Shown piece after piece: positions 30,767-62,057 of a stretch of 64,000 nt of DNA; positions within the stretch are counted from its first letter, which is position 1, and every line of letters starts with the position of its first letter. The notes beneath the pieces were generated by a model that ran no database searches, was not told where the DNA came from, and was given only the letters and a program-made list of their open reading frames with translations. The stretch lies in IMG/VR virus record IMGVR_UViG_3300029286_000013, one strand, 5' to 3'. Made by a program: the position numbers and the translations under genes. The DNA is from a virus.

Positions 30767-31072
30767 ATGGATACCAAAACCTTAATCAGCGAGGCTAAAG
30801 CCCGCTTCAATCTCAATACTGCCAAAGCGCAATTAAAAGACAAATACGATGGAAAACTAATACTAGCCGATCAAGGTGGGCTTTGGAAAGCCGACCCGGA
30901 AACAATTAATTTTTTAAATTCTTCAGATGATGAGGAGATGATTTTAATTGACAATTTTAATAATCCAGTTAACGTTAATAGAATCACTCTTTTAACCAAA
31001 CTTAAAGAAACCCGTACATCTATTATGCTAGCATGGTATAACGATTATAAAGAAATAGAGAACAAGAGATGA
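30767..31072 (+). CDS. Hypothetical protein, first gene of the enzyme cluster
   Basis: AGGAG SD and CTAAATA element upstream; ATGA overlap with the next gene. Confidence 0.7.
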   Translation: MDTKTLISEAKARFNLNTAKAQLKDKYDGKLILADQGGLWKADPETINFLNSSDDEEMILIDNFNNPVNVNRITLLTKLKETRTSIMLAWYNDYKEIENKR

Positions 31073-31872
31073 GTAGAGGGGCAATATTATTTGCATTCAA
31101 CTCGCCAAAGTTTGATTACTATAAAATGGCAGTTGCTACTGCAAAACGAATCAATCACTTTTTAGATATGCCTGTAACAGTTGTGACAGATGAATCTTCA
31201 GTTTCTAACGATCCTTACAAATTTGATAACACAATATTAGTTGAACCTGACAAAAGCAATAACAGAGACTGGGGAATTTGGATCAATAAAGGTCGCTATC
31301 AGGCGTATGAACTAAGTCCATACGATGAAACATTGTTGCTTGATACTGACTATATGGTCAACTCAAATAAGATACTAGACATATTTAATTATTATGATGA
31401 TTTCTGTTGTCACAATAAAACAAGTTATTTGATGCAACCTGGCTTAGTACAAGAAGTTCTTAGTGTTTATAGTTTTGAAACATTATGGGCTACTGTTGTT
31501 GCATTTAAAAAATCAAATCGTACTAAACAAATATTTGAATGTTTAGAAATGGTTCAGAAAAACTTTGAACATTACAGTAATTTACATGGATTCGTTGCTG
31601 GAACATTTAGAAATGATTATGCATTAACTCTTGCACTTAGAATAGTTAATGGACATACCTCAGTTGACCAAGATTTTATCCCGTGGAATTTAGTTCATTT
31701 AGGTCAAAAGAATGTACATATCTATAGAAATAATGACAATGAATTTAATAATCAATATACTATAATATATGATAATTGGCAACGAGGTAAAGTCAAAAAA
31801 GAATATACAACAATCAAAGACATGGATTTTCATGTGATGAATAAACTTAACTTTATGGAATTAATAGAATGA
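31069..31872 (+). CDS. GT-A fold glycosyltransferase (GT8/GT71-like)
   Basis: 'SRGAILFA' first strand; 'AYELSPYDETLLLDTD' with DxD motif; 'FRND' downstream. Confidence 0.7.
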   Translation: MSRGAILFAFNSPKFDYYKMAVATAKRINHFLDMPVTVVTDESSVSNDPYKFDNTILVEPDKSNNRDWGIWINKGRYQAYELSPYDETLLLDTDYMVNSNKILDIFNYYDDFCCHNKTSYLMQPGLVQEVLSVYSFETLWATVVAFKKSNRTKQIFECLEMVQKNFEHYSNLHGFVAGTFRNDYALTLALRIVNGHTSVDQDFIPWNLVHLGQKNVHIYRNNDNEFNNQYTIIYDNWQRGKVKKEYTTIKDMDFHVMNKLNFMELIE

Positions 31873-32642
31873 CTAGAGGTTTTGTAATCATGGCGCAGAA
31901 CACAGAAAAAACTGACTATGTTAAGTGTGCCAAAGCATTAGAAATAAGTATCAAGCGAGTTATGCCTGATGCCAATGTAACCATCATTACAACTGATATG
32001 TTACCGTACGGCGATCAAGCACCAGACAGTGATTGGAAACTTATAAATGATTGGCAAGTATATGAAGCAAGCCCATATGATGAAACAATTAAATTAGAAG
32101 CTGACATATTTTTACCCCGTAGTATTGAACATTGGTTTGATATCTTATCAATCAATGATGTGACATTATGTACAAAGATACGTAACTACAAAGGTGAAAT
32201 TTCTGATATAAGAGTTTATAGAAAGTTTATTGATGATAACAATTTACCTGATATCTATAATGCTATTACATATTTTAAAAAATCAGATACAGCAGAAAAG
32301 TTTTACAGAATAGTTAGAGATGTGTTTGAAAATTGGGAAGAATACAAAGCAATACTAAAATGTAATCCCACAGAAGAAGCAACAACTGATTGGGTTTATG
32401 CAATTGCAAGTCATATAATTGGAGTAGAAAAAACCACACTACCCAATTTTAACGAATTTTGTATGATACATATGAAACAGTTTGTCACCGGAACATTTAC
32501 TGAAAATTGGACTGATACTTTGGTATATGAATGTACACCTGACGCAATTAAGGTGAATACTTATGTACAAGAATATCCATTTCACTATCATATAAAGTCT
32601 TTTAGTGATAAAATTATAGAGAAATACAAATGGAACACGTAA
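31869..32642 (+). CDS. GT-A fold glycosyltransferase paralogue (EAD in place of DxD)
   Basis: 'TRGFVIMA...VYEASPYDETIKLEAD' aligns with the preceding gene; C-terminal 'PFHYHIK'. Confidence 0.65.
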   Translation: MTRGFVIMAQNTEKTDYVKCAKALEISIKRVMPDANVTIITTDMLPYGDQAPDSDWKLINDWQVYEASPYDETIKLEADIFLPRSIEHWFDILSINDVTLCTKIRNYKGEISDIRVYRKFIDDNNLPDIYNAITYFKKSDTAEKFYRIVRDVFENWEEYKAILKCNPTEEATTDWVYAIASHIIGVEKTTLPNFNEFCMIHMKQFVTGTFTENWTDTLVYECTPDAIKVNTYVQEYPFHYHIKSFSDKIIEKYKWNT

Positions 32643-32965
32643 TACTTTGGGAAGCACCAACTATCACTAAACCTGAATTCAGGTTATATTATGATGATAA
32701 AGGTAATGTATTATTTTATACCTGTGAAAAACCAGAAGGTAATTACATTGTTATCGATGCAACAACATATGCAATAGGTAGACCGGACGTTAGGATTATT
32801 GACGGGAAAATATCTACTGTAGTTACAAGTGCAGTTGTATCAAAGCTTATGCCCAATAAGGAAGATGGTATTATTTGTGCCGAAGAAGATATTAGTATTG
32901 TAGTAGATAAAAACTACAAAGGTAAAACTATTAATTGGAAATTAACAACTTATGAACTCGAATGA
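32630..32965 (+). CDS. Hypothetical protein (111 aa)
   Basis: Overlaps both neighbours in the coupled cluster; no recognised motif. Confidence 0.65.
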   Translation: MEHVILWEAPTITKPEFRLYYDDKGNVLFYTCEKPEGNYIVIDATTYAIGRPDVRIIDGKISTVVTSAVVSKLMPNKEDGIICAEEDISIVVDKNYKGKTINWKLTTYELE

Positions 32966-33905
32966 TATTATTGATGTAGCAGACTTAGATTGCATTTATC
33001 TTAGCTATGATGAACCACAAAAAGAAGAATTTTGGCTTAAAGTCAAACACATGGTGCCTTGGGCAAAACGTGTTGACAATGTTAAAGGTAGTGATGCCGC
33101 ACACAAAGCCGCAGGTGAGGCAAGTGATACAGAACGCTTCATTCTAATTGATGGCGACAACATGCCAGAAGAAAGTTTTTTCAACATTCAATTAGACTTT
33201 ACAGGCAAAGACGAAAAGTTTAGACAAGCGCAGTTTCGTTGGAAAGCTATCAATAACATCAACGGATTGCGTTATGGTAATGGTGGCATGAGTTCATGGA
33301 CTAAAGAATATGTGGCTAACATGAAAACCCATGAACATCAGAAAGACGGAGATGTTTCACGTATTGCTGACTTCTGTATGGGAGGTGATGACAACTTGTA
33401 TTGGGCTATGTGGGATTGTTATTCAACTACATATCCAAACATGACACCATTCCAAGCTTGGCGTGCAGGTTTCCGTGAAGGTGTTAAGATGAGTTTGGAT
33501 AGAGGTGCACGCCCTACTGTAGACCAATTTAAAGAAACGGTGGCAAGTCGTAACTTAGACAATCTGACCATATGGCATAATGTTGGTATGGATGTTGAGA
33601 ATGGTGAATGGGCTATATATGGTGCTCGTCTTGGTACATATATGACTATGCTTACAGAATGGGATCACACTAATGTTCAATGGTTTGACAACTATATCAC
33701 ATTGTGGGAAGAACATGTGAATAGAGATCCTGTGCGTGAATCAGCATTGTTAGGAGCCGCACTACATGATAAACTAGGACTACCTATGGCTACATTAGAT
33801 GGCTTACAAAGTAAATTCTTTAAACGTCATTATGGGGCAGACAAATACAATCGTGGCCCACTGGTAACAGAGATGGAAGTTATTCGTCAGATTCAGGGCT
33901 GGTAA
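32952..33905 (+). CDS. GT-A-like nucleotide-diphospho-sugar transferase
   Basis: 'DCIYLSYDEP...RVDNVKGSDAAHKAA...RFILIDGDN' (DxD after a hydrophobic strand), 'LRYGNGG', 'AWRAGFREGVK'. Confidence 0.6.
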   Translation: MNSNDIIDVADLDCIYLSYDEPQKEEFWLKVKHMVPWAKRVDNVKGSDAAHKAAGEASDTERFILIDGDNMPEESFFNIQLDFTGKDEKFRQAQFRWKAINNINGLRYGNGGMSSWTKEYVANMKTHEHQKDGDVSRIADFCMGGDDNLYWAMWDCYSTTYPNMTPFQAWRAGFREGVKMSLDRGARPTVDQFKETVASRNLDNLTIWHNVGMDVENGEWAIYGARLGTYMTMLTEWDHTNVQWFDNYITLWEEHVNRDPVRESALLGAALHDKLGLPMATLDGLQSKFFKRHYGADKYNRGPLVTEMEVIRQIQGW

Positions 33906-35470
33906 TGAGCGGTGAGTACGACCAGTTTGCTAGAGACATGCGTGACCGCTTAAATGCGGTCAGTCCATCACTATGTCTTGCTAAATGGCAACAAGTATCT
34001 ATTCACTTGCCTAGTGGATTGACTCAAAGTTGTTATCACCCACCCACCCACAAGATACCATTGGAGTTATTGAAAGATAAGCCCAGTGTACTACACAATA
34101 CTCCTACCAAAATACACGAACGTAAACAAATGCTTGAGGGTAAACGTCCTGAAGGTTGTAGCTATTGTTGGAAAGTAGAAGATGCTAAAAGTGATGATCC
34201 CAAAGGTCATATGAGTGACAGACATTATCGCAGTAGTGAATGGTGGAATGCACCTACATTTGAAGAAGTCACTGAAAACAAGTTTGACTATGATGTTGTC
34301 CCTCGATATATAGAAGTCAATTTCAATCAAGCATGTAACTTTAAATGTATGTATTGTAGTCCACATCTTTCCAGTAGTTGGGAAGAAGAAGTTAAGAAGC
34401 ACGGTGGTTATCAATTAACCGGAATGACACATAATAACTTAGAAGCATTAGAACAAAAAGGAATGATGCCACTCAAAGTGTCTAATAAAGACAATCCTTA
34501 TGTTGAAGCATTTTGGCAATGGTTCCCTGAAATCTATCGTAAACTACGTGTGTTCAGAATGACAGGTGGTGAGCCACTTATGGATAAGAACACTTTCAAA
34601 GTCTTAGACTATGTGAATGAGAATCCACATGGTCAACTTGAGTTATCTATAACAAGTAACATGTGTCCTCCGGATCAAAAGTTATTTGACAAGTTTGTCG
34701 AGAAAGTTAAAGCATTAGAAGAACTACGCACATACGAGGATAAAGAAAACTTCAACGTACATAGTGGTAATAACTGGTACGTAGATAAAGGATTTAAACA
34801 CTTTTGGTTGTTTGTATCACTTGATGGGTTTGGCGAGCAAGCAGAATATATGCGTACTGGGTTAGAGTTTGAACGCATGTTGGATAACGTTAGAACCTTC
34901 TTGCGTGAGACAAAGTACAGTACTGTTAGCTTTATCAATACATTTAATATCATGTCCATTCCTAGCTTACATAAGTTCTTGGAGATGGTACTAGAGTTAA
35001 GAGCAGAGTTTGGTGGAAGAAGTCAAGTTGAATTTGAAATTGCACCCGAACAAACTGAGGTAGAAAAAGAGAACGACATTGTACACAAAGTTTATACCCA
35101 GAAGAAATATCAACGTGTATTCTTTGATATTCCAATACTAAGATACCCTCCCTGGTTCAGTATTCAAAATGCAGGACAATATGGTATCGATGAAGTAGAA
35201 CGTTGCTTAAAGTACATGGAAGATAATGTACAAGGTGACGACTATTTGGAAACATTCGAAGGCTTTAAACCATATGAGCTATTGAAAATCAAGCGAGACC
35301 TTGCTATAATGAAAGAATCTCTACCCCAGGATCAATTACTACTAAATAAAAAGAACTTCTACCTGTTCATCACAGAATATGATAGACGCAGGCAAACGAA
35401 TTTTATAGAAACATTTCCAGAACTAAAGAGTTACTGGAGAGAATGTATCAAAGCGCACACTAAACATTAA
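33905..35470 (+). CDS. Radical SAM enzyme 1, N-terminal Twitch-like domain (CxAKW subtype)
   Basis: CNFKCMYC (CX3CX2C), TGGEP; N-terminal CLAKW..SCYHP..CSYCW. Confidence 0.9.
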   Translation: MSGEYDQFARDMRDRLNAVSPSLCLAKWQQVSIHLPSGLTQSCYHPPTHKIPLELLKDKPSVLHNTPTKIHERKQMLEGKRPEGCSYCWKVEDAKSDDPKGHMSDRHYRSSEWWNAPTFEEVTENKFDYDVVPRYIEVNFNQACNFKCMYCSPHLSSSWEEEVKKHGGYQLTGMTHNNLEALEQKGMMPLKVSNKDNPYVEAFWQWFPEIYRKLRVFRMTGGEPLMDKNTFKVLDYVNENPHGQLELSITSNMCPPDQKLFDKFVEKVKALEELRTYEDKENFNVHSGNNWYVDKGFKHFWLFVSLDGFGEQAEYMRTGLEFERMLDNVRTFLRETKYSTVSFINTFNIMSIPSLHKFLEMVLELRAEFGGRSQVEFEIAPEQTEVEKENDIVHKVYTQKKYQRVFFDIPILRYPPWFSIQNAGQYGIDEVERCLKYMEDNVQGDDYLETFEGFKPYELLKIKRDLAIMKESLPQDQLLLNKKNFYLFITEYDRRRQTNFIETFPELKSYWRECIKAHTKH

Positions 35471-35478
35471 GGAATAAA

Positions 35479-37005
35479 ATGGCAGGCAAGAAACACGAAG
35501 AATCATTCGCACAATACAAAGCAAGACTTATTGACCCTATTAGCGATAGCTATTGTGCCGCTAAGTGGCTAAACGCTACAATATGGTTGGGTAACGGACA
35601 AACAACTAGTTGTCACCACCCATTGGGGCATCAAATTGATGCGGCAGAGTTACTCACTAATCCATCAGCAATTCACAATACTCCACATAAGAAGTATATG
35701 CGTAAGTTGATGCAAGAAGGTAAACGCCCACAAGAGTGTGAATACTGTTGGAAGATTGAAGATATTGGTCGTGATAACATGAGTGACCGTGTTTACAAAA
35801 CTGCTGTATTTGAAGAATCAGACATTCTTAAAACTGCTAAAGCTGATTGGCAAGAGAATACAATGTTGAAAACATTAGAGATTTCTTTTGACCGTACATG
35901 TAACTTTGCCTGTAGTTATTGCAATCCAAGTTTCAGCACAACATGGGTTAAAGATATTCACAAGTTTGGTCCTTATCGTAATATCGACGGTGATGCACGT
36001 AGTCACTTTATTAATGAAGCTGACCATGCTAAGCCATTACCAGATGACATTAACCCATACATTCAAGCGTTCTGGCGTTGGTGGGAAGAAGGACTTGCTG
36101 ACAACTTAGAAGAAATTCGAATTACAGGTGGTGAACCACTTATGGCTCCTGGTGTATGGAAGCTTTTTGAATGGTTCCGTAATAATCAAGAACGTGCCAC
36201 AAATCGTCCAGATGGTAAAGTATTACGTTATGCTATCAATAGTAACTTAGTTCCCAAAGATGATATTATGGACAAGTTAATTGAGTATAGTCACTTTGTC
36301 CCCTACATGGAAGTCTATACAAGCTGTGAAGCATTTGGTTCTCACGCTGAATATATACGTGATGGCTTTGATTGGAACAAATGGATTCATAACTTAGGTA
36401 GATTGCACACTGAAGGTAACATCAAAAAGACACACATGATGATGACTATCAATAGCTTATGTTTGTCTAGTATTGTTCAGTTCATGGATCAGATGATGGA
36501 ATTCAAAAAGATTCATAACACAGTTTATCCTACGATGAGCTTGAACATCTTGCGCTTCCCTAGCTTCCAATCTTGTGCTATGTTGCCAACAGAGATTCGT
36601 CAGAAGTATAAAGACCAATTGCAAGTATGGTTAGATAATCAGATTGCTATGGATTTCCGTACAAGTGATGGTAAACAAATGCTTATGAGCATTGAACGTG
36701 AACAGACTCAACGATTGATTGATTACCTTGACGTTATTAAGACTCCTCATAAGAATGTTAAAGACATTGAACAGAATCGTAGAGACTTTAAACAGTTCTA
36801 TGCTCAGTATGATGTCCGTCGTGGTAAGAACTTCCGTGCAACATTCCCGCCAGAGTTTGTTGCTTTCTATGATAGTATTCAAACAGAGTTGCCCACTGCA
36901 GAGGAAATTAACACACAAAATTATCGTCAAGGTGTTGATTTAATACCGGATCATCCGCCTGAAGATCCAAGTAAAGATGTGTTTGTTAATCCAGATTTAC
37001 AATGA
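35479..37005 (+). CDS. Radical SAM enzyme 2, N-terminal Twitch-like domain (CxAKW subtype)
   Basis: CNFACSYC, TGGEP; CAAKW..SCHHP..CEYCW. Confidence 0.9.
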   Translation: MAGKKHEESFAQYKARLIDPISDSYCAAKWLNATIWLGNGQTTSCHHPLGHQIDAAELLTNPSAIHNTPHKKYMRKLMQEGKRPQECEYCWKIEDIGRDNMSDRVYKTAVFEESDILKTAKADWQENTMLKTLEISFDRTCNFACSYCNPSFSTTWVKDIHKFGPYRNIDGDARSHFINEADHAKPLPDDINPYIQAFWRWWEEGLADNLEEIRITGGEPLMAPGVWKLFEWFRNNQERATNRPDGKVLRYAINSNLVPKDDIMDKLIEYSHFVPYMEVYTSCEAFGSHAEYIRDGFDWNKWIHNLGRLHTEGNIKKTHMMMTINSLCLSSIVQFMDQMMEFKKIHNTVYPTMSLNILRFPSFQSCAMLPTEIRQKYKDQLQVWLDNQIAMDFRTSDGKQMLMSIEREQTQRLIDYLDVIKTPHKNVKDIEQNRRDFKQFYAQYDVRRGKNFRATFPPEFVAFYDSIQTELPTAEEINTQNYRQGVDLIPDHPPEDPSKDVFVNPDLQ

Positions 37006-38402
37006 CAAATAAAATAATGCCAATATGGGGAACAGATGCTAAACCGCATCCAGATAGCCCCAATAAAGTATTTTGTATGGCACCCTGGACACATACCTAT
37101 ATCAGTCCACAAAGCGAACGTAGGATGTGTTGTGCTAGCAGAGAAGAACATTCATTTCAAAAGCAATATATTGATAGTAGTAACGATTCAAAGTATGGCG
37201 CTGTAACTGAAAGTAAAACTGCATTGGATGATTACCAACCAGTAAGTTTAAAAGAACACTGGAATAGTGACTACATGAAAGATATTCGTGTAAAACTAAT
37301 GCGAGGTGAAGAGATACCTCAATGTGATGTGTGCAATAAAAACTTATTGATGGAGGGTGAAAGCTATCGTGGATGGTTCACTGGCGTATTGTTTAAAGAT
37401 AAAATTCAACAAGCATTTGATACTACAGACGATACTGGATTCACTTCAATGGAGCCAATAAGTTTTGATTATCGTTTTAGTAATCTATGTAATTTTAAGT
37501 GTCGCATGTGTGGTGAACAATTAAGTTCAACATGGGAAACTGAAAAGAAGATTCATAATATGTGGACTCCTAAAAATCAACCCTTTATGGTTCCTGAAAT
37601 TAAATCAGCAATGCAAGACTTTCAACAAAATGTGGTTGAACCTGAATTTCGTGATGCAGTAAGTCGTGGTATCGTAGAAGAAATGTATTGGGTTGGTGGC
37701 GAACCATTGATGTATGATGTTCATTGGTGGACATTAGAAGAAATGTTAAAAAATGGCTCTGCCAAGAATTGCTATATGCGCTATAATAGTAATTTAAGTC
37801 GTGTTCAATTTGGTCAGAAAAACTTATATGACTACCTACCACATTACAAGGATTGGATGATGTGTGCTAGCATTGATGGTACAGGTGATATTGTAGAATA
37901 CATCCGTACTGGAATCAAATGGGACAAATGGTTAGAAAATTTTAAACAAGGTTTAGCATTGCCCGGTGGTAAAGACAAGATGAAGTTAGATTTGACTATT
38001 ACCGCACCCGGAATGTTCTCGTTAAAAGAGTTGTTTGATTTAAGCATTGAATTAGATGTTGAAATTATTACAAAGATTACATTTGCATTTCATCCAGATA
38101 TTATGTGGAGTCCAACTAGTTGGCCACGTGAAATATTAAATGAAATGGTAGATGACATACTTTTATATTGCGAATCACGTGCTACTTGGAAACAACGTAG
38201 TTTTATTGGCAATTTACAGGCATTAAAAGACAGCCGCAAAACGCATGAAGAAGAATGGCCTGATAAGTATAAAACTGCAAGATTGAATGGCAAACGTTGG
38301 GTTGAACACTTAGAAAAGATACGAGGTGATGAGAAAGTCACAATGCGTAACATATATAGTCGAAACCCTAAATTATTAACATGGTGGGATAGCATACAAT
38401 GA
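37002..38402 (+). CDS. Radical SAM enzyme 3, N-terminal Twitch-like domain (CxxPW subtype)
   Basis: CNFKCRMC, VGGEP; CMAPW..MCC..CDVC. Confidence 0.9.
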   Translation: MTNKIMPIWGTDAKPHPDSPNKVFCMAPWTHTYISPQSERRMCCASREEHSFQKQYIDSSNDSKYGAVTESKTALDDYQPVSLKEHWNSDYMKDIRVKLMRGEEIPQCDVCNKNLLMEGESYRGWFTGVLFKDKIQQAFDTTDDTGFTSMEPISFDYRFSNLCNFKCRMCGEQLSSTWETEKKIHNMWTPKNQPFMVPEIKSAMQDFQQNVVEPEFRDAVSRGIVEEMYWVGGEPLMYDVHWWTLEEMLKNGSAKNCYMRYNSNLSRVQFGQKNLYDYLPHYKDWMMCASIDGTGDIVEYIRTGIKWDKWLENFKQGLALPGGKDKMKLDLTITAPGMFSLKELFDLSIELDVEIITKITFAFHPDIMWSPTSWPREILNEMVDDILLYCESRATWKQRSFIGNLQALKDSRKTHEEEWPDKYKTARLNGKRWVEHLEKIRGDEKVTMRNIYSRNPKLLTWWDSIQ

Positions 38403-39094
38403 GTAAAAATATTTTAGTAGTGGGTGGAGGAACACCTGATAAATTTGGAAATCAATTTGTGAAAAAAGCCAGAGATGATGGTAATCGTGTAATAAATTTT
38501 TCATATAAGGATCACAATACTAATCACATAGATGATAGATATATCAACTATAGTGATACTAAACAAGTTAAAAGTAAATGTTTAGAATTGTCCAGTGAAC
38601 TATCCGTAATTGATATTATATTGTTTAATCAAAATGGATCAGGTTATCCAGGATTAGCAAATCAACTATTTAAAGAACCAAATCCTATTGAGTATGTTCA
38701 AACAATAAACAGAGCAGTAACTATTCCTCATCAAATTATTGCATCATTGTATGACAATTTAATTGTCGGCAGTAAAGTAGTATATATGGGTTCCACAATG
38801 TCATTTCAATATGAACGTGAAAATTATCCAGAAGGAGTGGGATATCCTAGCGCCAAATCATTTGCTATGCATTTAATATCAACCATGGCAAGATGTAGAA
38901 CAAAGGAAATTACCTTTAGTTGTATGTGTCCTTATTTCTTATATGATAAACCAGAATTGTACTCACACATTTTTGACCAAACTTACAGTTATATTTTAAC
39001 ACACGATGATAGTTTTAACGGAAAGATAGTAAATCAATTTAATGGATTTGAAAATCCATACGTACCGGGTAAAGTAGTTTATGCAAAACAATGA
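38399..39094 (+). CDS. Short-chain dehydrogenase/reductase (SDR)
   Basis: Rossmann start 'ILVVGGGTPDKFG', 'IDIILFNQ', 'VVYMGS' and catalytic-type YxxxK (YPSAK). Confidence 0.7.
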   Translation: MSKNILVVGGGTPDKFGNQFVKKARDDGNRVINFSYKDHNTNHIDDRYINYSDTKQVKSKCLELSSELSVIDIILFNQNGSGYPGLANQLFKEPNPIEYVQTINRAVTIPHQIIASLYDNLIVGSKVVYMGSTMSFQYERENYPEGVGYPSAKSFAMHLISTMARCRTKEITFSCMCPYFLYDKPELYSHIFDQTYSYILTHDDSFNGKIVNQFNGFENPYVPGKVVYAKQ

Positions 39095-45202: not shown

Positions 45203-45204
45203 TA

Positions 45205-46386: not shown

Positions 46387-46396
46387 TGGGATAATA

Positions 46397-52930: not shown

Positions 52931-52933
52931 ATA
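52926..52933 (+). promoter_or_regulatory. Perfect T4 late promoter consensus TATAAATA inside the enzyme cluster
   Basis: At one of the few non-overlapping gene junctions, 5 nt before the ATG of rSAM 14. Confidence 0.6.
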
Positions 52934-52938
52934 GCTGT

Positions 52939-54246
52939 ATGATAAAAAAAACATTCCCTATACAAAATGATGCCGCTTGCTTATACAAATGGTCGTGGAG
53001 TACATTATTTTTAAGTAGAGGTACTACATCAAGCTGTCACCGAGGCCGTCATTGGAGATTAACTGAAGATAACTTTATGGATTTTCACAACCATCATGGT
53101 AAACTTGCTGATAGAGAAAAAATGGCTAGCGGGGAATGGCCAGGTAACGGATGTGAATACTGCAGGGATATTGAAAAGACTGGTGGTAAGAGTGATAGAA
53201 CAGGATTTGTTAACGAATCTATCGAATTATTACCGCCCGAGTTTGAAGGATATGTGCAACGTGCATATGAGTTTGAAAATATTCCATTAAAAGTTAGCCC
53301 CACACTACTTGAAGTTTATTTCAACAACGTTTGTAATCAATCATGTGTGTACTGTACCCCGGGTTTTAGTAGTCAGATTGAACAAGAGGTTCGTAAATTT
53401 GGACCTAGCGAGTTTAACGAAGATTATAGTACATGGCGTCCCGATAGTAAGTATGAATTATACAAAGAAAAGTTTTGGGAATGGATGGAAAAGAACAGTG
53501 AGCATGTACAAATCCTACAAGTATTAGGTGGAGAACCGCTGTATCAAAAAGAATTTGAACAATGTTTAGATTTCTTTGACAAGCATCCTAGACCAAATTT
53601 AGTATATCGCTCATTTAGTAATTTAAAACATGATCCTGAAAAGTTTAAAGCAAAGATTCAACGTGTGCAAAACTTAATAGACCAGGGTAAATTAAAGAGC
53701 ATGGAGTTTGTATGTAGTATTGATTGCTGGGGTCCTGAAATTGAATATGTACGTGATGGATTGATATTAACAGAGTGGGAACAAAATATGAATACGTTGT
53801 TAAATGCTCCGGGTGTAGGTGTATTAATACATGCAACGCTTACTGCATTAACATTACCTACATTGCATCAATTGATAGAGAAAACAAATGAATGGCGCAA
53901 AATTAAACCTACTGTTGGTATTAATTGGAATACTGTAGTTAGACCCTCAACATTTAATCCATACAACTTTGGAAAATATCTAGCACACTCTATTGATGCA
54001 CCAATTAAAGCATTAGAAAATTATAGCGATCCTATTGAAAGAGAAAAATTACAAACTCATTTAATGGGTATACAGCAACAACTATTAACTACTCCTGCAA
54101 ACAAGAAGGAAGTTAATGATTTTGCTAACTTCTTAGCTGACATAGACAAACGTAGGAATAGAGACTGGAAAGCAATATTTCCACAGATTGTGGACATAAT
54201 AAATACTATTAACAAAGAGGAGCCAGATTATGTTCAAGTGGATTAA
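52939..54246 (+). CDS. Radical SAM enzyme 14, N-terminal Twitch-like domain (CxxKW subtype)
   Basis: CNQSCVYC, LGGEP; CLYKW..SCHR..CEYC; perfect TATAAATA immediately upstream. Confidence 0.9.
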   Translation: MIKKTFPIQNDAACLYKWSWSTLFLSRGTTSSCHRGRHWRLTEDNFMDFHNHHGKLADREKMASGEWPGNGCEYCRDIEKTGGKSDRTGFVNESIELLPPEFEGYVQRAYEFENIPLKVSPTLLEVYFNNVCNQSCVYCTPGFSSQIEQEVRKFGPSEFNEDYSTWRPDSKYELYKEKFWEWMEKNSEHVQILQVLGGEPLYQKEFEQCLDFFDKHPRPNLVYRSFSNLKHDPEKFKAKIQRVQNLIDQGKLKSMEFVCSIDCWGPEIEYVRDGLILTEWEQNMNTLLNAPGVGVLIHATLTALTLPTLHQLIEKTNEWRKIKPTVGINWNTVVRPSTFNPYNFGKYLAHSIDAPIKALENYSDPIEREKLQTHLMGIQQQLLTTPANKKEVNDFANFLADIDKRRNRDWKAIFPQIVDIINTINKEEPDYVQVD

Positions 54247-54334
54247 AAATTTATATCATACTATTAGAGCAGAAATACGCTATCGCAAGCGTATTAAAGA
54301 ATTACGCAAAAGAGATCCGTTTATTTACAAATGA
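54230..54334 (+). CDS. Small basic 34-aa peptide missing from the ORF track (MFKWIKNLYHTIRAEIRYRKRIKELRKRDPFIYK)
   Basis: GAGGAG SD 7 nt upstream of the ATG, fills the gap between rSAM 14 and the next gene, and its TGA overlaps the next ATG (ATGA). Confidence 0.75.
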   Translation: MFKWIKNLYHTIRAEIRYRKRIKELRKRDPFIYK

Positions 54335-55167
54335 TTCTCGATAGTTTTGCTCAACTTAATTTATTAGATTCCACTGACATTTTAGATGTTAGGTATTTTA
54401 CTGCCAATGAAATAAGAGTACAGTCTATCAAAAAAGATGGAGTGACTATATTTGACTTCTTTAGTATGGATGACCTAAATTATGCTGATAAGTGGCAACA
54501 TCAACCATTTGATTACAAAATGAATTATTTGGGTTTTAGAATGGAAGAAGTTCCCAACGAAGTTGATATAGCAGTATTTGGTTGCAGTTTTACCTTTGGA
54601 TTGGGTCTACCTACTGAAATGTTATGGCATAATTTACTAGCTAAAGAGTTAAATATGTCTTGTGCAAATTTTGGAGTTGCGGGGGCATCTGCTAAAACAA
54701 TTATTGACATATTTTTAATTGTTTCTAAACATATTAAAATTAAAAAGGCAATATTTTTATTACCAACATTTACAAGAATGCAGATAGCAAAACATAATGA
54801 AATATCCAACAGAGTTCAAAATTTATCAGCAATCCCAGGGCATGAATCACAATTATGTGTGTCATATGGAATTGATACGCATGTTCTATTTAAAGCATTA
54901 CCCAATGAAGAACTATACAAAATTGTAAAAAATGAAATATATTTAGCAGAATATGTTGCCAATAACAGGGGCATAGAAACATATTTTGGTGCTTGGGAAG
55001 AAGAATCTGCTAATTTTTTAGAAATTATGAATTTAAAATATGGAACTAAATTGCCACAATGGCACACTCCAGCAGAATGTGTGGGTGATTTAGCAAGGGA
55101 TCAAATGCACCCTGGTCCAAAACATCAGGAATATTGGTTTAATAATATTAAAGATATTATAAAATGA
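54331..55167 (+). CDS. SGNH-like protein (GCS variant)
   Basis: 'YKMNYLGFR...IAVFGCSFTFGLG', 'NFGVAGAS', C-terminal 'ARDQMHPG' (DxxH). Confidence 0.7.
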   Translation: MILDSFAQLNLLDSTDILDVRYFTANEIRVQSIKKDGVTIFDFFSMDDLNYADKWQHQPFDYKMNYLGFRMEEVPNEVDIAVFGCSFTFGLGLPTEMLWHNLLAKELNMSCANFGVAGASAKTIIDIFLIVSKHIKIKKAIFLLPTFTRMQIAKHNEISNRVQNLSAIPGHESQLCVSYGIDTHVLFKALPNEELYKIVKNEIYLAEYVANNRGIETYFGAWEEESANFLEIMNLKYGTKLPQWHTPAECVGDLARDQMHPGPKHQEYWFNNIKDIIK

Positions 55168-56648
55168 ACTATGTAGGTATATCTAGTGGCTTTCATGATG
55201 CCGCACTAACTGTTATAGATGATAATGGCAACATACTGTTTGCCGGACATAGCGAACGTTATAATAAAGAAAAGCACACAAAAGATTTATGCTATGACAT
55301 AGTTAAAGATGCACTATCTTATACAACATCAAGTGATATTGAGATTCATTATTATGAACGTCCTTGGATGAAGTTTCTAAGGCAAGTTCGTTCAGGTGAA
55401 AAGCCTGCATTATCTAATTTGTTTGTTAAAAATATTATTGGTCAAGAATTGATTGATAAATTGCAAGGCGGTAAAGTATATACGCATAACCATCACTTAA
55501 GTCATGCAGCCGCAGGTTTTCAAACAAGTCCCTACGATGATGCTACTGTAGTTGTCATTGACGCTATCGGTGAGTTTGATACTATTAGTATTTACAATGC
55601 ACGGTATGATAAGAACGGTGTAGCACAATACAAAAAACTATGGGGACAAAAGTATCCACATAGTATTGGGTTATTCTATTCAGCAATGACACAGCACGTA
55701 GGCTTACGTCCATTAGATGAAGAATATATTCTTATGGGTATGGCTGCATACGGTAATCCTAAACACACAGATATAATGTCAGGATTAATTACAGACATAG
55801 AGGATATTCGTTTCGCTGAAAATTTACACATAGGAATACCTGATAAATTTTTAATTGATAAAAATGAAATGGATATTGCTAGTTCAACACAAAATGTAGT
55901 AGAAATATTAATTAAATCAGTCATATCAAAAGCAAAAATGTTAGGTGGTAGTAAAAACTTAGTATATGGTGGCGGTGTAGCATTAAACTGTTCGGCAAAT
56001 AGATTATTAGGAGAATATTATGACAACATTTGGATTATTCCTAATCCTGGCGATGCTGGTTCTAGTCTTGGAGCGGCCTGTCTTGGTTATGGTAAACGTG
56101 TTAACTGGACTAACGCTTTTCTCGGTTATGATATTAGTGGGCCTTATCCTACTAATCGCATTCTTGATAGTTTACTTACTGACAAAATTGTGGGAGTCGC
56201 TAGTGGACGAGCAGAGTTTGGGCCAAGGGCCTTGGGAAATAGAAGCTTACTTGCAGACCCAAGAGGAAATGAAATCAAGGACAAAGTAAATGAAATTAAA
56301 CGCAGACAGAAGTTTAGACCCTTTGCTCCAGTCATTCTGGAGGAGTATGCTGATATGTACTTTGATATGCCTCGTGGCTTCAGTAACAGTAGGTATATGC
56401 AAGTCATCGCTCGTTGCAGGCATCCTCAGTTATTTCCTGCTATCGTTCATCATGACGGGACTAGTCGTGTACAAACTGTGCCAAAGGATGGCACTGGAAT
56501 AAGAGAACTGTTAGAGAAATGGTATATATTAACAGGTTGCCCTATGTTATTAAACACATCATTGAACATCAGAGGCGAACCAATGGTTAATAATAGGGAA
56601 GACGCAGATAGATTTGAAAAACTATATAATGTAAAAGTTATATCATAA
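55164..56648 (+). CDS. O-carbamoyltransferase, NodU/CmcH/TobZ family
   Basis: FHDAA, HHLSHAA, GGVALNC, PGDAGSSLGAA, EFGPRALGNRSLLADP, FRPFAP, DGTSRVQTV, LLNTSLN. Confidence 0.93.
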   Translation: MNYVGISSGFHDAALTVIDDNGNILFAGHSERYNKEKHTKDLCYDIVKDALSYTTSSDIEIHYYERPWMKFLRQVRSGEKPALSNLFVKNIIGQELIDKLQGGKVYTHNHHLSHAAAGFQTSPYDDATVVVIDAIGEFDTISIYNARYDKNGVAQYKKLWGQKYPHSIGLFYSAMTQHVGLRPLDEEYILMGMAAYGNPKHTDIMSGLITDIEDIRFAENLHIGIPDKFLIDKNEMDIASSTQNVVEILIKSVISKAKMLGGSKNLVYGGGVALNCSANRLLGEYYDNIWIIPNPGDAGSSLGAACLGYGKRVNWTNAFLGYDISGPYPTNRILDSLLTDKIVGVASGRAEFGPRALGNRSLLADPRGNEIKDKVNEIKRRQKFRPFAPVILEEYADMYFDMPRGFSNSRYMQVIARCRHPQLFPAIVHHDGTSRVQTVPKDGTGIRELLEKWYILTGCPMLLNTSLNIRGEPMVNNREDADRFEKLYNVKVIS

Positions 56649-56658
56649 GTAAGTATCT

Positions 56659-59600
56659 ATGCTAAGAGATGTATTTTATTTCGGAGAAAAACCCAACGTT
56701 CACCCCAGAGAAAGATTTGCAACAGATTTATCTGATGCCAAACATCAATGCACTACTGAACACTTTTGGGTAATCAACGAACACTGCAATTATAAAGATT
56801 TTGATTGGGATTGGGACTTTGATTTCCTTCCTGACGAAGATGTATGGGCTGAAGAACACAATAATGTATGGCCAAGCCCTTACCAGAAAGACAGCGGAAC
56901 TTGGCTTTGTTCAACTAACACAGATGCGGTAACAATATATCGTGCTGATGTTGATCCTATCCCACTCAAAGAAGAAGTAACAACTAATTGGAAAATAATT
57001 GAATATATTGAAAAAGATAAATTTGATTTCAAATGGCACCCAGATCCAAGTGACCCTCCCTATATTTATGTATGGGGCAATAAATGGTATCCCGGTACTA
57101 TCATGCCAACGGTTGAATACCATGTACCGGGTGCTACGGATAAAAAATACATAACAGATACCTTAGCTACATTATTATCAATGCCTCGTTTGTTTAATAT
57201 TATATACGAGCCGGCAAATTTTGATTATACGTGGAGACCGGATCCAACTGCACCTCCCTACATTTATGTATTTGGTAACAGTCAATACCCAGCAAGTGTG
57301 ATGCCAACTATAGAGTACCATGTAGAAGGTGCAACTGAACGTAAGTTTATTGAGAATATTGCGCCTAAGTTGGCAGCTAGACCCGCAGACTTTGAAGCAC
57401 TTGAAGATATAGATCCAACTTCATTTGATATGACATGGGTACCTGATCCAACTGCGCCACCATACATCTATGCTTGGGGTAATCAATGGAATAAACCTGA
57501 ATTCAAAATTAGTGTCATACGTAAAGTAGAAGGTGCCACAGAATACAAGTACATGGAAGAACGTGTCAAGCGTAATCCATGCATGGATAACTGGATCATA
57601 CCTACTAACATGTTCCAGAATAAATTTGATTTTAGTTGGGAACCAGACTTATCAAAATATGATCCTCCATTCATATATCAATTTGGAACACAATGGCAAA
57701 AAACAGGTGGACCAAGATATGTAGTGCCAGGCGCAACGGATATAAAATATATTGATACATTAAAAGCAGAAGTTGTTTGTACAGAATTTGAAAATTGGCA
57801 AGTACCTAAAAATATAGACCAATCTAAATTTGATTTTAGTTGGCATCCTGATTCGACGGAAGAACCATTCATCTATCAATTTCCCGACCAATGGACACGC
57901 ACCGGAGGACCTAGGTATGTTGCCCCGGGCGCAACAGAGATAAAATATATCGATGCACAGATAGCAACAGCTAAACAAGATAAGATGCATTGGACAATAC
58001 CTGAAGGAATTGATACAACTGATTTTGATTTTAGTTGGCATCCTGATATAGACCATGCACCGTTGATATATCAATTTGGTACTCAATGGCAACGAACAGG
58101 TGGACCTAGATTCTATGCAGTAGGATGTACAGAAGATAGCGACATACAATATGTTAATGTGACAAAGGCAAAAGCATTATCAAACAAAGATAACTGGGAA
58201 ACATTAATTCCTGTAAAAGATTTTGATTATAGTTGGCACCCTGATACTACAGAAGAACCATTCATTTATGTGTTTGGTAATCAATGGTTCGATGCTGTTA
58301 CTGAACCTACTGTTATCTATACTGTACCTGGCGCAACACAAAAGAAATATATTAATGATGTGTCTGCTAATGTTGCACCTACTGTAGAAAACTGGGAAAC
58401 ATTAATACCAGTAGATAGTTTTGACTATAGCTGGAGACCACACCCTGATAGCCCACCGTACATATACGTATGGGGCAATCAATGGAACAACTGCTTCATC
58501 GAACCCACAGTATCTTATATTGTGCCAGGGGCAACTGAATACAAGTATATAGAAGATAATGTTGCTATGGTAAAATCTACTGAGAAAGAACCTCAGTGGG
58601 AAATACTGTTGTCTATTTCTAAGTTTGATTTTAGTTGGAGACCCGACCCATTAGAGCCACCCTTCATTTATGTGTTTGGTAACAAGTGGAATGATGCTGA
58701 GACAGAACCTACTGTGATGTATCGTGTTGAAGGTGCAACTGAATACAAATTCTTAGACTCTATCATTGCTACTCCCAAAGTGAATATGACTAACTGGTTA
58801 GTTCGTAATGAATTAGACTTGAAAGCATTTGATTTTTCATGGAGACCTAATCCTAACAAAGATCCTGCACGATATGAATGGGGAACAGACGGACCTGTTT
58901 ATATTGTACCAGACTTTAAGTCAACAATCACATTAGATTATGATGAATCTATAAGAGAAAACGTTGTTGTAGAAATAACCGATGAAGTTATTCAAAAGAT
59001 AATTCACCGTGATATGTTCTTTGTTGATAAGGGCAACAGTGAAAGCAGTTATAGATTTGAAAAATTAAAATTACAATTTCCATCTATTCAGAAAACTAGA
59101 TATTTAAATTCATGGGTGGAAACTATTTCACGCTGTACGTCAAAAAGCACAACTGAACTATTTTGGGTATTGTCTAGTGAATTAGACTATACTGAGTTTA
59201 ACTTTGACTATAACCCTAACCCGTGGCAAAAACGAATGATTCATGTGTTTGGTAGTCAGTGGACTCATTGGGGTAATACATACCTTGTAAACAAGAACAC
59301 ATTTAACGAAGATACCAAATATGTTAAAATCATAGAACATTTAAGTATGCTTAATTTTGTTAAAGATAAGAGAGCCAAAGCAGAAGGCTCATTGTATGAT
59401 GTGATATTAATTAATCATGGAAACAAGTCAAATGTAAATGAAGTTATCAAATCTAAGATTGGTAATAAATCTACAATTACGGTTGACTATAAGCATAGCT
59501 ACCTAAAAACATTCAAAGAGATATTAAAGAAATTAGACACTAGAAAAGAACACTATCTTTGGATATGTTCAAGTATATGTGACTATGAAAATTTTGATTT

Positions 59601-60732
59601 TAGTTATATATGCGATCCATATGCTAGGGAGCAATTACATGTGTTTCCTAGCGATAAACAGAAATTTGGAGACACATTTTTAATTGATGTAAACAAATTT
59701 AAGTCATTGATTGATGACATGATTATGATGGAAGACTATGAAAAGGTCAACTACAATCAACATCAAAGAGTAAAACGCTTACCCGCCCCTATTATTATTA
59801 CGAAAGAAGATACACATGTCACTAATATTCATACTGATTTTGATTGGCCTTATGCTACGTTTGTCACGGAAGATAACAAAGGATTAGATGTACTTGATAG
59901 TGAACCTATTAGTTTGTGGACACCGGACACTAAGAACATACTGATTACGAGTACAGGTGCAACACGAATAATTGTTCCTAAAGAAGCAAAAGATTATATA
60001 GAGAATGAGTTGTATGATTATCCATACATCAGTCGTAGTAAGTCTCTAGCTAAATCTCAACCGCTGGATATAGTCTTCCTAAGTAACGGTGAAACCGGTG
60101 CTGACGAGAACTACGAACACTTACTAAAAGTGACTAAGGGATTAAATAATAGAGTTGTTAGAGTTGATGGTGTTAACGGTCGTGTACAGGCGTATCATGC
60201 GGCAGCGAAAGCAAGTGAAACACCGTGGATGTTTACTGTATTTGCTAAATTAAAAGTCAACAATAAATTTGATTTCTCATGGCAACCTGATAGGCTACAA
60301 GTACCTAAGCATTATATCTTTCACGCTACAAACCCTGTTAATGGATTAGAGTATGGTCACCAAGCTATGATTGCTTATAATAAGAAGATTACACTTGCTA
60401 ACAGTGGAACGGGGCTTGACTTCACACTTGACAATGAACACGAAGTTGTAGAGTTAAATAGTGGTGTAGCAATATATAATACTGATGCTTGGAGTACATG
60501 GCGTACTAGTTTTAGAGAAGCATTGAAGTTAAGAGCCGATGATAGCCAAGCAAGTAAAGATAGACTTGAAGCATGGTTAAATATCGGTGAAGGAGACTTT
60601 GCCCAATATAGTTGCGAAGGTGCTCAACATGCTGTAGAATACTATGAATCAGTCAACGGTGAGTTAGACAAATTACGTTTAAGTTATGATTGGCCTTGGT
60701 TACAAGAGTATTTTAATACTAAATACAATTGA
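56659..60732 (+). CDS. 1357-aa repeat protein composed of degenerate GT-A-like domains and ~10 tandem ~66-aa repeats
   Basis: C-terminal domain (LDIVFLSNGE..RVDGVNGRVQAYHAAA..LEYGH..TWRTSFREALK) is clearly homologous to 32952..33905; internal FDFSWxPD...PYIYxFGxQW...GATExKY repeats. Confidence 0.7.
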   Translation: MLRDVFYFGEKPNVHPRERFATDLSDAKHQCTTEHFWVINEHCNYKDFDWDWDFDFLPDEDVWAEEHNNVWPSPYQKDSGTWLCSTNTDAVTIYRADVDPIPLKEEVTTNWKIIEYIEKDKFDFKWHPDPSDPPYIYVWGNKWYPGTIMPTVEYHVPGATDKKYITDTLATLLSMPRLFNIIYEPANFDYTWRPDPTAPPYIYVFGNSQYPASVMPTIEYHVEGATERKFIENIAPKLAARPADFEALEDIDPTSFDMTWVPDPTAPPYIYAWGNQWNKPEFKISVIRKVEGATEYKYMEERVKRNPCMDNWIIPTNMFQNKFDFSWEPDLSKYDPPFIYQFGTQWQKTGGPRYVVPGATDIKYIDTLKAEVVCTEFENWQVPKNIDQSKFDFSWHPDSTEEPFIYQFPDQWTRTGGPRYVAPGATEIKYIDAQIATAKQDKMHWTIPEGIDTTDFDFSWHPDIDHAPLIYQFGTQWQRTGGPRFYAVGCTEDSDIQYVNVTKAKALSNKDNWETLIPVKDFDYSWHPDTTEEPFIYVFGNQWFDAVTEPTVIYTVPGATQKKYINDVSANVAPTVENWETLIPVDSFDYSWRPHPDSPPYIYVWGNQWNNCFIEPTVSYIVPGATEYKYIEDNVAMVKSTEKEPQWEILLSISKFDFSWRPDPLEPPFIYVFGNKWNDAETEPTVMYRVEGATEYKFLDSIIATPKVNMTNWLVRNELDLKAFDFSWRPNPNKDPARYEWGTDGPVYIVPDFKSTITLDYDESIRENVVVEITDEVIQKIIHRDMFFVDKGNSESSYRFEKLKLQFPSIQKTRYLNSWVETISRCTSKSTTELFWVLSSELDYTEFNFDYNPNPWQKRMIHVFGSQWTHWGNTYLVNKNTFNEDTKYVKIIEHLSMLNFVKDKRAKAEGSLYDVILINHGNKSNVNEVIKSKIGNKSTITVDYKHSYLKTFKEILKKLDTRKEHYLWICSSICDYENFDFSYICDPYAREQLHVFPSDKQKFGDTFLIDVNKFKSLIDDMIMMEDYEKVNYNQHQRVKRLPAPIIITKEDTHVTNIHTDFDWPYATFVTEDNKGLDVLDSEPISLWTPDTKNILITSTGATRIIVPKEAKDYIENELYDYPYISRSKSLAKSQPLDIVFLSNGETGADENYEHLLKVTKGLNNRVVRVDGVNGRVQAYHAAAKASETPWMFTVFAKLKVNNKFDFSWQPDRLQVPKHYIFHATNPVNGLEYGHQAMIAYNKKITLANSGTGLDFTLDNEHEVVELNSGVAIYNTDAWSTWRTSFREALKLRADDSQASKDRLEAWLNIGEGDFAQYSCEGAQHAVEYYESVNGELDKLRLSYDWPWLQEYFNTKYN
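57022..58917 (+). repeat. Nine full and one partial tandem protein repeats, FD(F/Y)SW(H/R)PDxxxxP(F/Y)IYx(F/W)GxQW...(P/E)GATxxKY
   Basis: Directly visible in the translation of 56659..60732. Confidence 0.85.
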
Positions 60733-62056: not shown

Positions 62057-62057
62057 A

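Follow-up and report, generated by a model that had tools for sequence, protein, structure and literature searches.

What a virus would make with fourteen radical S-adenosylmethionine (SAM) enzymes encoded beside its tail genes is the question raised by positions 30767-60732 of the 64,000-nucleotide stretch of DNA analysed here (the window), which is part of IMG/VR virus record IMGVR_UViG_3300029286_000013. The source contig is a viral contig of 116 kb, estimated to be 33% complete, and its baseplate hub and wedge genes, identified with PHROGs, relate it to the Rak2/GAP32/Atu_ph07 jumbo myovirus group. A first-pass annotation, made from the letters of the sequence and without database searches, had interpreted the region as a late-expressed cluster for the synthesis and tailoring of a virion glycan, an interpretation that is partly supported by the present analysis. 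This annotation had underweighted a 34-amino-acid (aa) open reading frame (ORF), the gene of the module with the highest conservation, which is linked to the carbamoyltransferase. We describe the region as one copy of a biosynthetic island that is widespread among large aquatic phages, and the reading that we find the most plausible, if still tentative, is that the island tailors a sugar or glycan, probably that of a Thr-rich fibre protein, with the carbamoyltransferase and the microprotein acting as a holoenzyme. With about 9% of a genome of about 350 kb given to one pathway that uses 14 oxygen-sensitive radical enzymes, the island represents a very large viral investment. The coordinates of all features are collected in Table 1.

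A conserved microprotein is tied to the carbamoyltransferase

The microprotein belongs to a family of 33-36 aa in which the core DP(F/Y)IY is invariant and is followed by nothing, K, R or EE, and it was found in every version of the module, including those of the cultured phage RsoM2USA and of the marine single-cell virus contig AG-345-D19. Probing with the microprotein returned at least 375 viral contigs, and one exact 33-aa variant was present on 591 public contigs, each time labelled "hypothetical protein"; a Pfam search with 8 diverse variants at E values up to 10 returned no family. K-(R)-D-P-F-I-Y was invariant across the 97 distinct nucleotide versions even though every synonymous codon was in use, and the last 20 codons showed 39,374 synonymous versus 14,771 non-synonymous codon differences. 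The synonymous excess, together with the invariant tail, indicates that the microprotein is a translated gene under strong purifying selection. At the same loci, mean column identity was 81% for the peptide compared to 53% for the carbamoyltransferase. A tblastn search of phage records with the 34-aa peptide gave no match, the query being short and probably filtered, and the loci were then scanned by motif. Within cellular genomes, the microprotein was found in only 13 aquatic contigs from metagenome-assembled genomes, of scattered taxonomy, and in no isolate genome; these 13 contigs are best explained as mis-binned phage DNA, which is their likely origin.

The neighbourhood of the microprotein was counted in 80 probed loci. 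The carbamoyltransferase lay 0-2 genes 3' of the microprotein in 79 of these loci, the exception being a locus truncated by the end of its contig, while twitch radical SAM genes were found 5' of it in 71 and a g25-like gene followed the carbamoyltransferase in 58. The stop codon of the microprotein overlapped the start of the next ORF as ATGA in 32 of 65 loci. The microprotein was unchanged whether 0 or 6+ twitch radical SAM genes were located upstream, and since it stays constant despite their number, its constraint tracks the carbamoyltransferase rather than the radical SAM array.

The assignment of g24 as a NodU-type carbamoyltransferase in the first-pass annotation was borne out, as both Pfam domains scored far above their cutoffs (Carbam_trans_N, 8.2e-34, 118 bits versus 24; Carbam_trans_C, 2.6e-48, 164 bits versus 27). 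Profile matches to the structures of NovN, GdmN and TobZ ranged from 2.5e-70 to 1e-40, and residues H11, D12, H110, H111, H114 and D133, in the putative metal-site motifs of the Kae1-like domain, were at least 90% conserved in 31 homologs. NovN, GdmN and TobZ carbamoylate sugar or small-molecule hydroxyls. Like these enzymes, g24 has two domains; it is, however, shorter (494 aa, compared to 576-702 aa) and, unlike them, the phage enzyme comes in every case with a dedicated microprotein of 33-36 aa, for which binding to the enzyme's Kae1-like domain is predicted.

In the structure model of the microprotein-carbamoyltransferase complex, the interface score (ipSAE) was 0.75, and the best control scored 0.00. 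A score of 0.75 was attained in 58 of a set of 80 solved complexes, against 2 in a set of 110 mismatched pairs. Contact agreement between runs was at least 96%, and the confidence score (pLDDT) of the partner was at least 79. One helix face of the microprotein packs in the model against residues 216-224 of the Kae1-like domain, and tail residues 30-34 contact enzyme residues that include 10 and 134-135, the neighbours of the conserved H11-D12 and D133 motifs. The model supports binding of the microprotein to the carbamoyltransferase, of which it would be an adaptor subunit. The short ORFs sxtJ and sxtK beside the saxitoxin carbamoyltransferase gene sxtI (PMC2885083) offer a precedent for such a small partner. 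Comparison of the interface between peptide-linked and peptide-less carbamoyltransferases revealed no clear deletion that the peptide could replace, and no microprotein was seen beside the carbamoyltransferases of HTVC008M, S-SSM7 and C48C1, which are more distant. The pairing is a concrete, testable addition to the well-studied NodU/TobZ-type family, and it may explain orphan small ORFs beside carbamoyltransferases elsewhere.

A ribosome-arrest regulatory leader peptide that tunes translation of the carbamoyltransferase would fit a small ORF whose conserved part is C-terminal, next to the stop codon, and which overlaps the following start codon. However, the amphipathic N-terminal part is conserved too, the helix-on-enzyme interface is confident and reproducible in the complex model, and g23 rather than the carbamoyltransferase comes next in the window and in some relatives; such a leader is the least credible explanation that we considered.

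The island recurs as a fixed frame with a variable middle

Gene order was kept in seven related viral contigs, one of which is a 352-kb genome rated complete, and across these relatives g02-g08, g11, g12 and g16-g25 form a core, with g09, g10 and g13-g15 as a variable middle. The frame was also kept where the radical SAM enzymes have no more than about 35% identity; in these lineages, a protein of ~316 aa was followed by genes of ~101, ~267, ~257, ~110 and ~308 aa, the radical SAM array, the 33-aa ORF and the carbamoyltransferase; after the latter, the recurring layout ends with the large repeat protein of dead glycosyltransferase (GT)-like domains. The linkage of GT-like, radical SAM and carbamoyltransferase genes, whose absence would have counted against the first-pass interpretation, was conserved in relatives and in distant lineages alike. 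Among uncultured large phages of lakes and oceans the frame is found hundreds of times, and it is also present in one cultured soil phage. The genes g09, g10 and g13-g16 (38399-47713) have a G+C content of 0.29-0.32, compared to 0.36-0.41 in the conserved g05-g08, g12 and g18, and the low G+C of the variable middle genes fits cassette exchange within the array.

Homologs of ~316 aa of the Thr-rich protein encoded at 29762-30715 (35-38% identity) were located directly 5' of g01-g05 homologs in loci L017/L018, L120 and L121. A Thr-rich protein (17-22% Thr) preceded the module head directly in four lineages, and in one of them a glycine-rich fibre-type domain was fused to it. The placement of the island next to structural genes, as described in the first-pass annotation, holds with respect to this fibre-like neighbour in four lineages, but not in RsoM2USA, in which the module is found about 100 kb from the baseplate genes.

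Two loci depart from the common arrangement. In L037, a DegT/EryC1 aminotransferase fragment (2e-18), a B12-radical SAM gene and a methyltransferase gene take the place of the twitch array, upstream of a peptide-carbamoyltransferase-g25 core that is the same as elsewhere. The gene just 5' of the peptide in this locus (L037 7261-8016) gave a sub-threshold match to Peptidase_C10 (23 bits, E = 1e-4) and may encode a different protease in the position held elsewhere by g23-type proteins. The second is the minimal module of Ralstonia phage RsoM2USA (MG752970, about 125.9 kb), which consists of three DUF6071 proteins with a G-C-S motif, one g07 ortholog (50%), the small ORF and the carbamoyltransferase. 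Genes 199-203 of this phage, annotated as hypothetical, encode the carbamoyltransferase, the three DUF6071 proteins and the N_Twi_rSAM protein, and between RsoM2USA_201 and _200 there is a 36-aa ORF without annotation (L001 19026-19136), whose sequence ends in DPFIYK. Alignment of the g23 and g20/g21 profiles with the DUF6071 proteins (hhalign) recovered short SGNH-block motifs only, at probabilities of 17% and 4%, respectively, and the RsoM2USA genome paper holds no data on its module genes.

In the literature searched, no published characterisation or description of the operon was found, and the statement of the first-pass annotation that no characterised pathway has such a composition stands as far as these searches reach. 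Nishimura et al. 2017 (PMC5332604) mentioned in passing 12 radical SAM genes in the environmental genome of a marine T4-like virus, a large aquatic myovirus; the genes were counted there as Fe-S proteins, and the operon, the peptide and a function were not described.

The enzyme set resembles aminocyclitol tailoring, with its TobZ-type carbamoyltransferase, BtrN-like twitch domain and, in L037, DegT and B12-radical SAM genes, and the minimal module of RsoM2USA is located away from structural genes. These features would suit a free small molecule, aminoglycoside-like or another carbamoylated pseudo-saccharide, that is made late and acts off the virion on the host or on competitors, with the microprotein as only an enzyme subunit. 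A precedent is offered by the saxitoxin cluster, in which the carbamoyltransferase gene sxtI is flanked by the short uncharacterised ORFs sxtJ and sxtK and which also contains the GDSL-type SxtL (PMC2885083). What the two have in common (a carbamoyltransferase, adjacent short ORFs and an SGNH/GDSL protein) is a likeness of gene arrangement, and the pathway around the saxitoxin carbamoyltransferase is entirely different. Moreover, no enzyme to form a scaffold (cyclase, nonribosomal peptide synthetase or polyketide synthase), no exporter and no self-resistance gene was found in or beside the island, the large g25 is hard to fit, and the late-operon placement and the constant Thr-rich fibre-like upstream neighbour speak against a free product, which we hold to be rather unlikely.

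Glycosyltransferase-like and SGNH proteins

Three GT-A-like proteins had been proposed in the first-pass annotation; g05 proved to be one by its fold and DxD motif, whereas g02 and g03 are a lead from a language model only. In the structure model of g05 (pLDDT 89.6), the top PDB matches for the first ~160 residues (~6-165) were exclusively GT-A enzymes, the best being B4GALNT1 (Z 10.2, 3.1 Å, 145 residues aligned), and many GT2/GT-A enzymes followed at Z 8-9.7. Each of the two Asp residues, D67 and D69, was retained in 90% or more of the 52 diverse homologs aligned, and g05 has more than 8000 homolog clusters. Its fold matches include the peptide glycosyltransferases SunS and ThuS as well as the viral proteins PBCV-1 A64R, STIV A197 and Mimivirus R699. 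With PBCV-1 A64R and SunS/ThuS, g05 has the GT-A fold in common (Z 8.0-9.2), a likeness at the fold level only, as identity was 8-14%. The known GT-A virion and glycocin systems are without radical SAM arrays or a carbamoyltransferase, whereas g05 is found with both and adjoins structural genes. For g02, a feature score of 0.96 to PF03407/PF01501 clusters was obtained in a language-model atlas, with no Pfam match and no PDB sequence match, and profile searches of PDB sequences with g02/g03 and g05 gave nothing useful.

The description of g25 as a GT-derived repeat protein held up, since it contains repeats of ~66 aa and shows homology to g05 (E = 1e-9) in its C-terminal GT-like domain. Nine of the ~66-aa repeats (57034-58680) also contain the P(F/Y)IY core of the peptide tail (54314-54328), in the context W.PD..P(F/Y)IY.(F/W)G. 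We considered whether this core is a recognition site that the tail shares with the repeats, and set the idea aside, because the repeat motif was present in only 25 of 84 loci and corresponds to a core beta-strand of the GT-A-like sub-domain; the recurrence, which may be strand mimicry or chance, is not used as evidence.

Among the three SGNH proteins proposed, g23 was confirmed by its fold and catalytic triad, while g20 and g21, each with GDS plus a distal His, can be called SGNH-like at the motif level only. The g23 model (pLDDT 94.6) matched GDSL proteins with a Foldseek probability of 1.00. Its best PDB match was the crocagin leader peptidase CgnD (8a2n_A; Z 15.4, 3.6 Å, 214 residues aligned), followed by TesA (Z 14.4, 2.6 Å, 158 residues aligned); SGNH hydrolases scored Z 15.4-13.5 and carbohydrate esterases Z 12-13. 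Within the g23 family (53 sequences), S86 and H260 were invariant and D257 was conserved in at least 90%. The proposed short-chain dehydrogenase g09 has a glycine-rich N-terminus, but its match to adh_short is weak (20.1 bits, under the cutoff of 26.6). A PHROGs search with the unassigned cluster proteins returned nothing.

An expanded family of N-terminal-twitch radical SAM enzymes

The count of 14 radical SAM enzymes was upheld, as the CX3CX2C motif and a match to Pfam Radical_SAM were present in all of them. Thirteen are members of NCBIfam NF033640 (N_Twi_rSAM), with scores of 181-359 bits against a cutoff of 170; the fourteenth, g19, scored 45 bits and is a non-member, a canonical radical SAM protein with a C-terminal SPASM domain instead. 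The N_Twi_rSAM layout is permuted, in that a Cys-rich twitch/SPASM-like domain is N-terminal to the CX3CX2C core, and in six of the proteins Pfam SPASM was matched at residues ~6-112, ahead of the core. Alignment of the paralogs showed that four Cys of the N-terminal region and the CX3CX2C motif are invariant, and profile positions 12-78 of N_Twi_rSAM align with the C-terminal twitch domain of BtrN. The 13 proteins thus have the same permuted layout as the family, which is amplified here to 13 paralogs in one phage operon. These old paralogs are 19-45% identical and fall into three subclades (A, B and C).

PDB sequence searches with g07 and g19 gave no matches, and a megablast search of phage records with 8.6 kb of the array was likewise without a match. 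The literature searches returned no characterised member of NF033640 and no paper naming it, so that one solved substrate would provide annotation for thousands of genes. On the same contig, outside the window, there are two more radical SAM genes (contig positions 4607-5086 and 99494-99973); their Pfam scores (59 and 42 bits) are the best of all 16, and they are probably of housekeeping types.

The island is probably transcribed with late structural genes

The region 30767-60732 contains 25 ORFs of at least 60 aa, all on the + strand, which together with the 34-aa ORF at 54230-54334 make up the 26 co-oriented genes of the first-pass annotation. Among the 24 gene junctions, 17 are overlapping, ten of them by 4 nt, and the sole real gap (84 nt) is occupied by the 34-aa ORF. 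The order 5' of the cluster is baseplate genes, then one 6404-aa ORF, then three Ser/Thr/Asn-rich ORFs. The richness in these residues that had been reported for the upstream proteins was reproduced, at 25-37% compared to 18.5% in the cluster enzymes. Membrane segments are unlikely in any cluster protein (maximum Kyte-Doolittle 19-residue mean, 1.62), in agreement with the cytoplasmic location assumed earlier.

The (G/C)(A/T)TAAATA motif ahead of g01 is also found 5' of structural genes at 4571, 5069, 27707 and 28490. In the intergenic DNA ahead of structural genes and g01, TAAATA was observed 7 times versus 0.98 expected (~seven-fold, P = 7e-5), and there was no enrichment of the canonical T4 late promoter TATAAATA. 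The sharing of this element, which the first-pass annotation had noticed, supports placement of the cluster in a late operon, and these data support late transcription, along with the structural genes, and a cytoplasmic site of action for the island.

The product of the island

In the scheme that we favour, the frame would have five parts: a Thr-rich fibre-like protein followed by a GT-A-type head (g02, g03 and g05); an expandable array of N-terminal-twitch radical SAM enzymes; SGNH-fold hydrolases; a NodU/TobZ-type O-carbamoyltransferase complexed with its dedicated 33-36-aa microprotein; and a large protein of dead GT-like domains (g25). A sugar-containing group would be attached to a late phage product, for which the adjacent Thr-rich fibre protein is the best candidate; radical oxidation, epimerisation or deoxygenation, along with O-acyl handling and O-carbamoylation, would afterwards modify the attached group. 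What the analysis shows is the gene content, the g05 and g23 folds, the family memberships, the synteny and the microprotein's conservation and carbamoyltransferase linkage, and what we infer is that the substrate is a sugar, that the target belongs to the virion, and each of the reactions. Sugar chemistry on a late product is favoured because g05 is a fold-verified GT-A protein with a DxD motif and L037 carries DegT, B12-radical SAM and methyltransferase genes, because the solved members of the carbamoyltransferase family act on sugar or small-molecule hydroxyls, because a variable middle is set in a fixed frame, as in glycan loci, and because the island is placed in a late operon with a constant Thr-rich fibre-like protein upstream. 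The GT8/PF03407 lead for g02 and the matches of g23 to carbohydrate esterases point the same way. A PHROG search with this protein, the candidate glycosylation acceptor, gave no match. If the product decorates tail fibres, the island bears on host recognition and on the evasion of host defences.

Several observations weigh against this scheme. Among the GT candidates of the cluster, g05 alone has a fold verified by a structure model, the C-terminal domain of g25 is without the DxD motif (IDGDN of g05 aligns to TVFA-K), and the window yielded no flippase, no polymerase and no genes for nucleotide-sugar synthesis. The minimal module of RsoM2USA has no GT and lies far from the baseplate genes. 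SPASM/twitch radical SAM enzymes are best known for peptide maturation, and the closest solved relative of the array by sequence is 8VPO, a cyclopropylglycine synthase of a peptide that is made by the ribosome and modified after translation (RiPP). The top structural match of g23 is a leader peptidase, and since the peptide tail is modelled beside residues that flank the conserved, putative metal-site motifs of the carbamoyltransferase, the role of an acceptor fits as well as that of an adaptor.

An account in which the microprotein is a ribosomal precursor or carrier draws on these same points. Its basic helix would serve the enzymes for recognition, and its DPFIY tail would be modified by the radical SAM enzymes; glycosylation of the tail by the GT-A enzymes and carbamoylation would follow, perhaps with release by an SGNH-fold peptidase, in a crocagin-like manner. 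The crocagin precursor is short and basic and has Ile-Tyr-Trp as its C-terminal core; it is processed by an esterase-fold peptidase, CgnD, and carbamoylated by CgnI, while clusters related to that of crocagin carry a GT instead (PMC10070186). The phage island is like this pathway in its short basic peptide with an aromatic C-terminal motif, in an SGNH-fold protein nearest to CgnD and in its carbamoyltransferase, and by the GTs of the related clusters. A short, precursor-type gene is found inside every version of the module; it is ultra-conserved, with an invariant tail selected at the protein level, and such conservation is expected of a peptide recognised by many enzymes. In the complex model the tail is near H11-D12 and D133, a homolog of the canonical radical SAM-SPASM protein g19 is encoded directly 5' of the peptide in L005, L006, L027 and L097, and the minimal RsoM2USA module, lacking a GT, would suit a peptide product.

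However, the peptide is constant across a radical SAM repertoire of 0 to 13 and tracks only the carbamoyltransferase, and a core of five residues offers too little room for twenty-odd enzymes. Pfam detected no RiPP recognition element (PqqD-like) in any cluster protein. As the Tyr is followed by variable residues, the very C-terminus is no fixed reactive point. CgnD was ahead of TesA, a generic SGNH esterase, by only about 1 Z unit in the g23 comparison, and oxidation in the crocagin pathway is carried out by a 2-oxoglutarate dioxygenase with CgnB/CgnE, in contrast to the radical SAM enzymes of the phage island. The sxtI/sxtJ/sxtK precedent, moreover, is one of small ORFs beside carbamoyltransferases that are not precursors (PMC2885083). 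We regard the precursor account as unlikely, although it is the strongest of the competitors. The more specific proposal that the DPFIY tail is the scaffold of a heavily modified, RiPP-like, peptide-derived glycoconjugate made by hundreds of aquatic phages and co-expressed with virion genes is doubtful to much the same degree, and a peptide-derived product would be a new source of natural-product chemistry. Some small weight is kept for a product outside all of the readings considered here.

Hypermodification of DNA, in which the carbamoyltransferase and the GTs would decorate hydroxymethylated bases, has a precedent in phages whose NodU-type enzymes, paired with a ThyA-like hydroxymethylase, carbamoylate 5-hydroxymethylcytosine in DNA to make 5-carbamoyloxymethylcytosine (PMC8670742). 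A ThyA-family gene is located about 10 kb 3' of the cluster, and a DNA-methyltransferase-like ORF is encoded at 62344-62949. The ThyA homolog, however, matched NF002497 with 341 bits (cutoff 327) and TIGR03284 with 334 bits (cutoff 108) and retains the Asn that specifies deoxyuridine monophosphate, in PFNIASYALL; as this sole homolog is a true thymidylate synthase and not a hydroxymethylase, the proposal is weakened. Tet_JBP was unmatched in the contig and in the complete 352-kb relative, with control genomes equally unmatched, and no deoxycytidine monophosphate deaminase or MazG-like gene was found among the cluster genes and the adjacent ORFs scanned. In addition, the carbamoyltransferases of unmodified contigs adjoin glycosyltransferases, as in the present case (PMC8670742), and the cluster lies within a late structural operon rather than among nucleotide-metabolism genes. 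DNA modification is accordingly very unlikely to be the purpose of the island.

Features of the island and its flanks

Table 1. Features of the island and of the DNA directly upstream (positions in the window).
Feature	Position	Strand	Length (aa)	Assignment and observations
Single large ORF	8488-27702	+	6404	Between baseplate wedge gene and fibre-like genes; 28% Ser+Thr+Asn
Thr-rich fibre-like protein	29762..30715	+	317	18% Thr, 37% Ser+Thr+Asn; constant upstream neighbour of module head
Late-promoter-like element	30738..30745	+		TCTAAATA; ahead of g01
g01	30767..31072	+	101	Conserved head gene; 38% identical homolog in L017/L018; only a sub-threshold PITH match
g02	31069..31872	+	267	Putative nucleotide-sugar transferase, GT8/PF03407-like (lead)
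g03	31869..32642	+	257	g02 paralog (25% identity, E = 1e-11); kept in L006, L008, L017
g04	32630..32965	+	111	Conserved head gene; orthologs in L004, L006-L008, L017
g05	32952..33905	+	317	GT-A-fold glycosyltransferase-like; intact DxD (D67, D69)
g06	33905..35470	+		N_Twi_rSAM, subclade A; NF033640 288.6 bits; CX3CX2C at residue 144
g07	35479..37005	+		N_Twi_rSAM, subclade A; 297.2 bits; ortholog RsoM2USA_202 (50% identity)
g08	37002..38402	+		N_Twi_rSAM, subclade B; 308.3 bits; SPASM at residues 25-112, before radical SAM core
g09	38399..39094	+	231	Possible short-chain dehydrogenase (weak); variable; among relatives only in L003, L005
g10	39081..40301	+		N_Twi_rSAM, subclade B; 337.9 bits; variable, missing in L004, L006, L007
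g11	40298..41476	+		N_Twi_rSAM, subclade B; 343.9 bits; core
g12	41473..42759	+		N_Twi_rSAM, subclade A; 282.3 bits; core
g13	42750..43904	+		N_Twi_rSAM, subclade C; 183.5 bits; variable; 45% identity with g15
g14	43901..45202	+		N_Twi_rSAM, subclade B; 341.4 bits; variable; 44% identity with g17
g15	45205..46386	+		N_Twi_rSAM, subclade C; 181.1 bits
g16	46397..47713	+		N_Twi_rSAM, subclade B; 358.7 bits; 1829 homologs in a large protein collection
g17	47706..49034	+		N_Twi_rSAM, subclade B; 351.8 bits
g18	49034..50287	+		N_Twi_rSAM, subclade A; 243.4 bits
g19	50287..51459	+		Canonical radical SAM; CX3CX2C at residue 21; C-terminal SPASM at residues 284-350
g20	51456..52187	+	243	SGNH-like, GDS motif; profile match to GDSL protein 4rsh_A (E = 3.9e-4)
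g21	52184..52930	+	248	SGNH-like, GDS ... D-H-H
g22	52939..54246	+		N_Twi_rSAM, subclade A; 233.5 bits
Microprotein	54230..54334	+	34	Basic; invariant DPFIY tail
g23	54331..55167	+	278	SGNH-fold hydrolase; G-C-S block I; S86, D257, H260
g24	55164..56648	+	494	Predicted NodU/CmcH/TobZ-family O-carbamoyltransferase
g25	56659..60732	+	1357	~10 tandem ~66-aa repeats from GT-A sub-domain, plus GT-like domains

Directly 3' of the cluster, a permuted two-piece transfer-messenger RNA gene (60739-60964, + strand) was matched by Rfam RF04321 with 111 bits (gathering score, 47), whereas ARAGORN made no call at this position. Further 3', three intergenic regions within 62012-63460 contain sigma-70-like TTGACA-N17-TAnnnT promoters, which precede the DNA-methyltransferase-like ORF (62344-62949) and an ATPase gene (63461 onward). 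Judged by their sequence, these promoters would mark a change, after the cluster, from late transcription units to early or middle ones.

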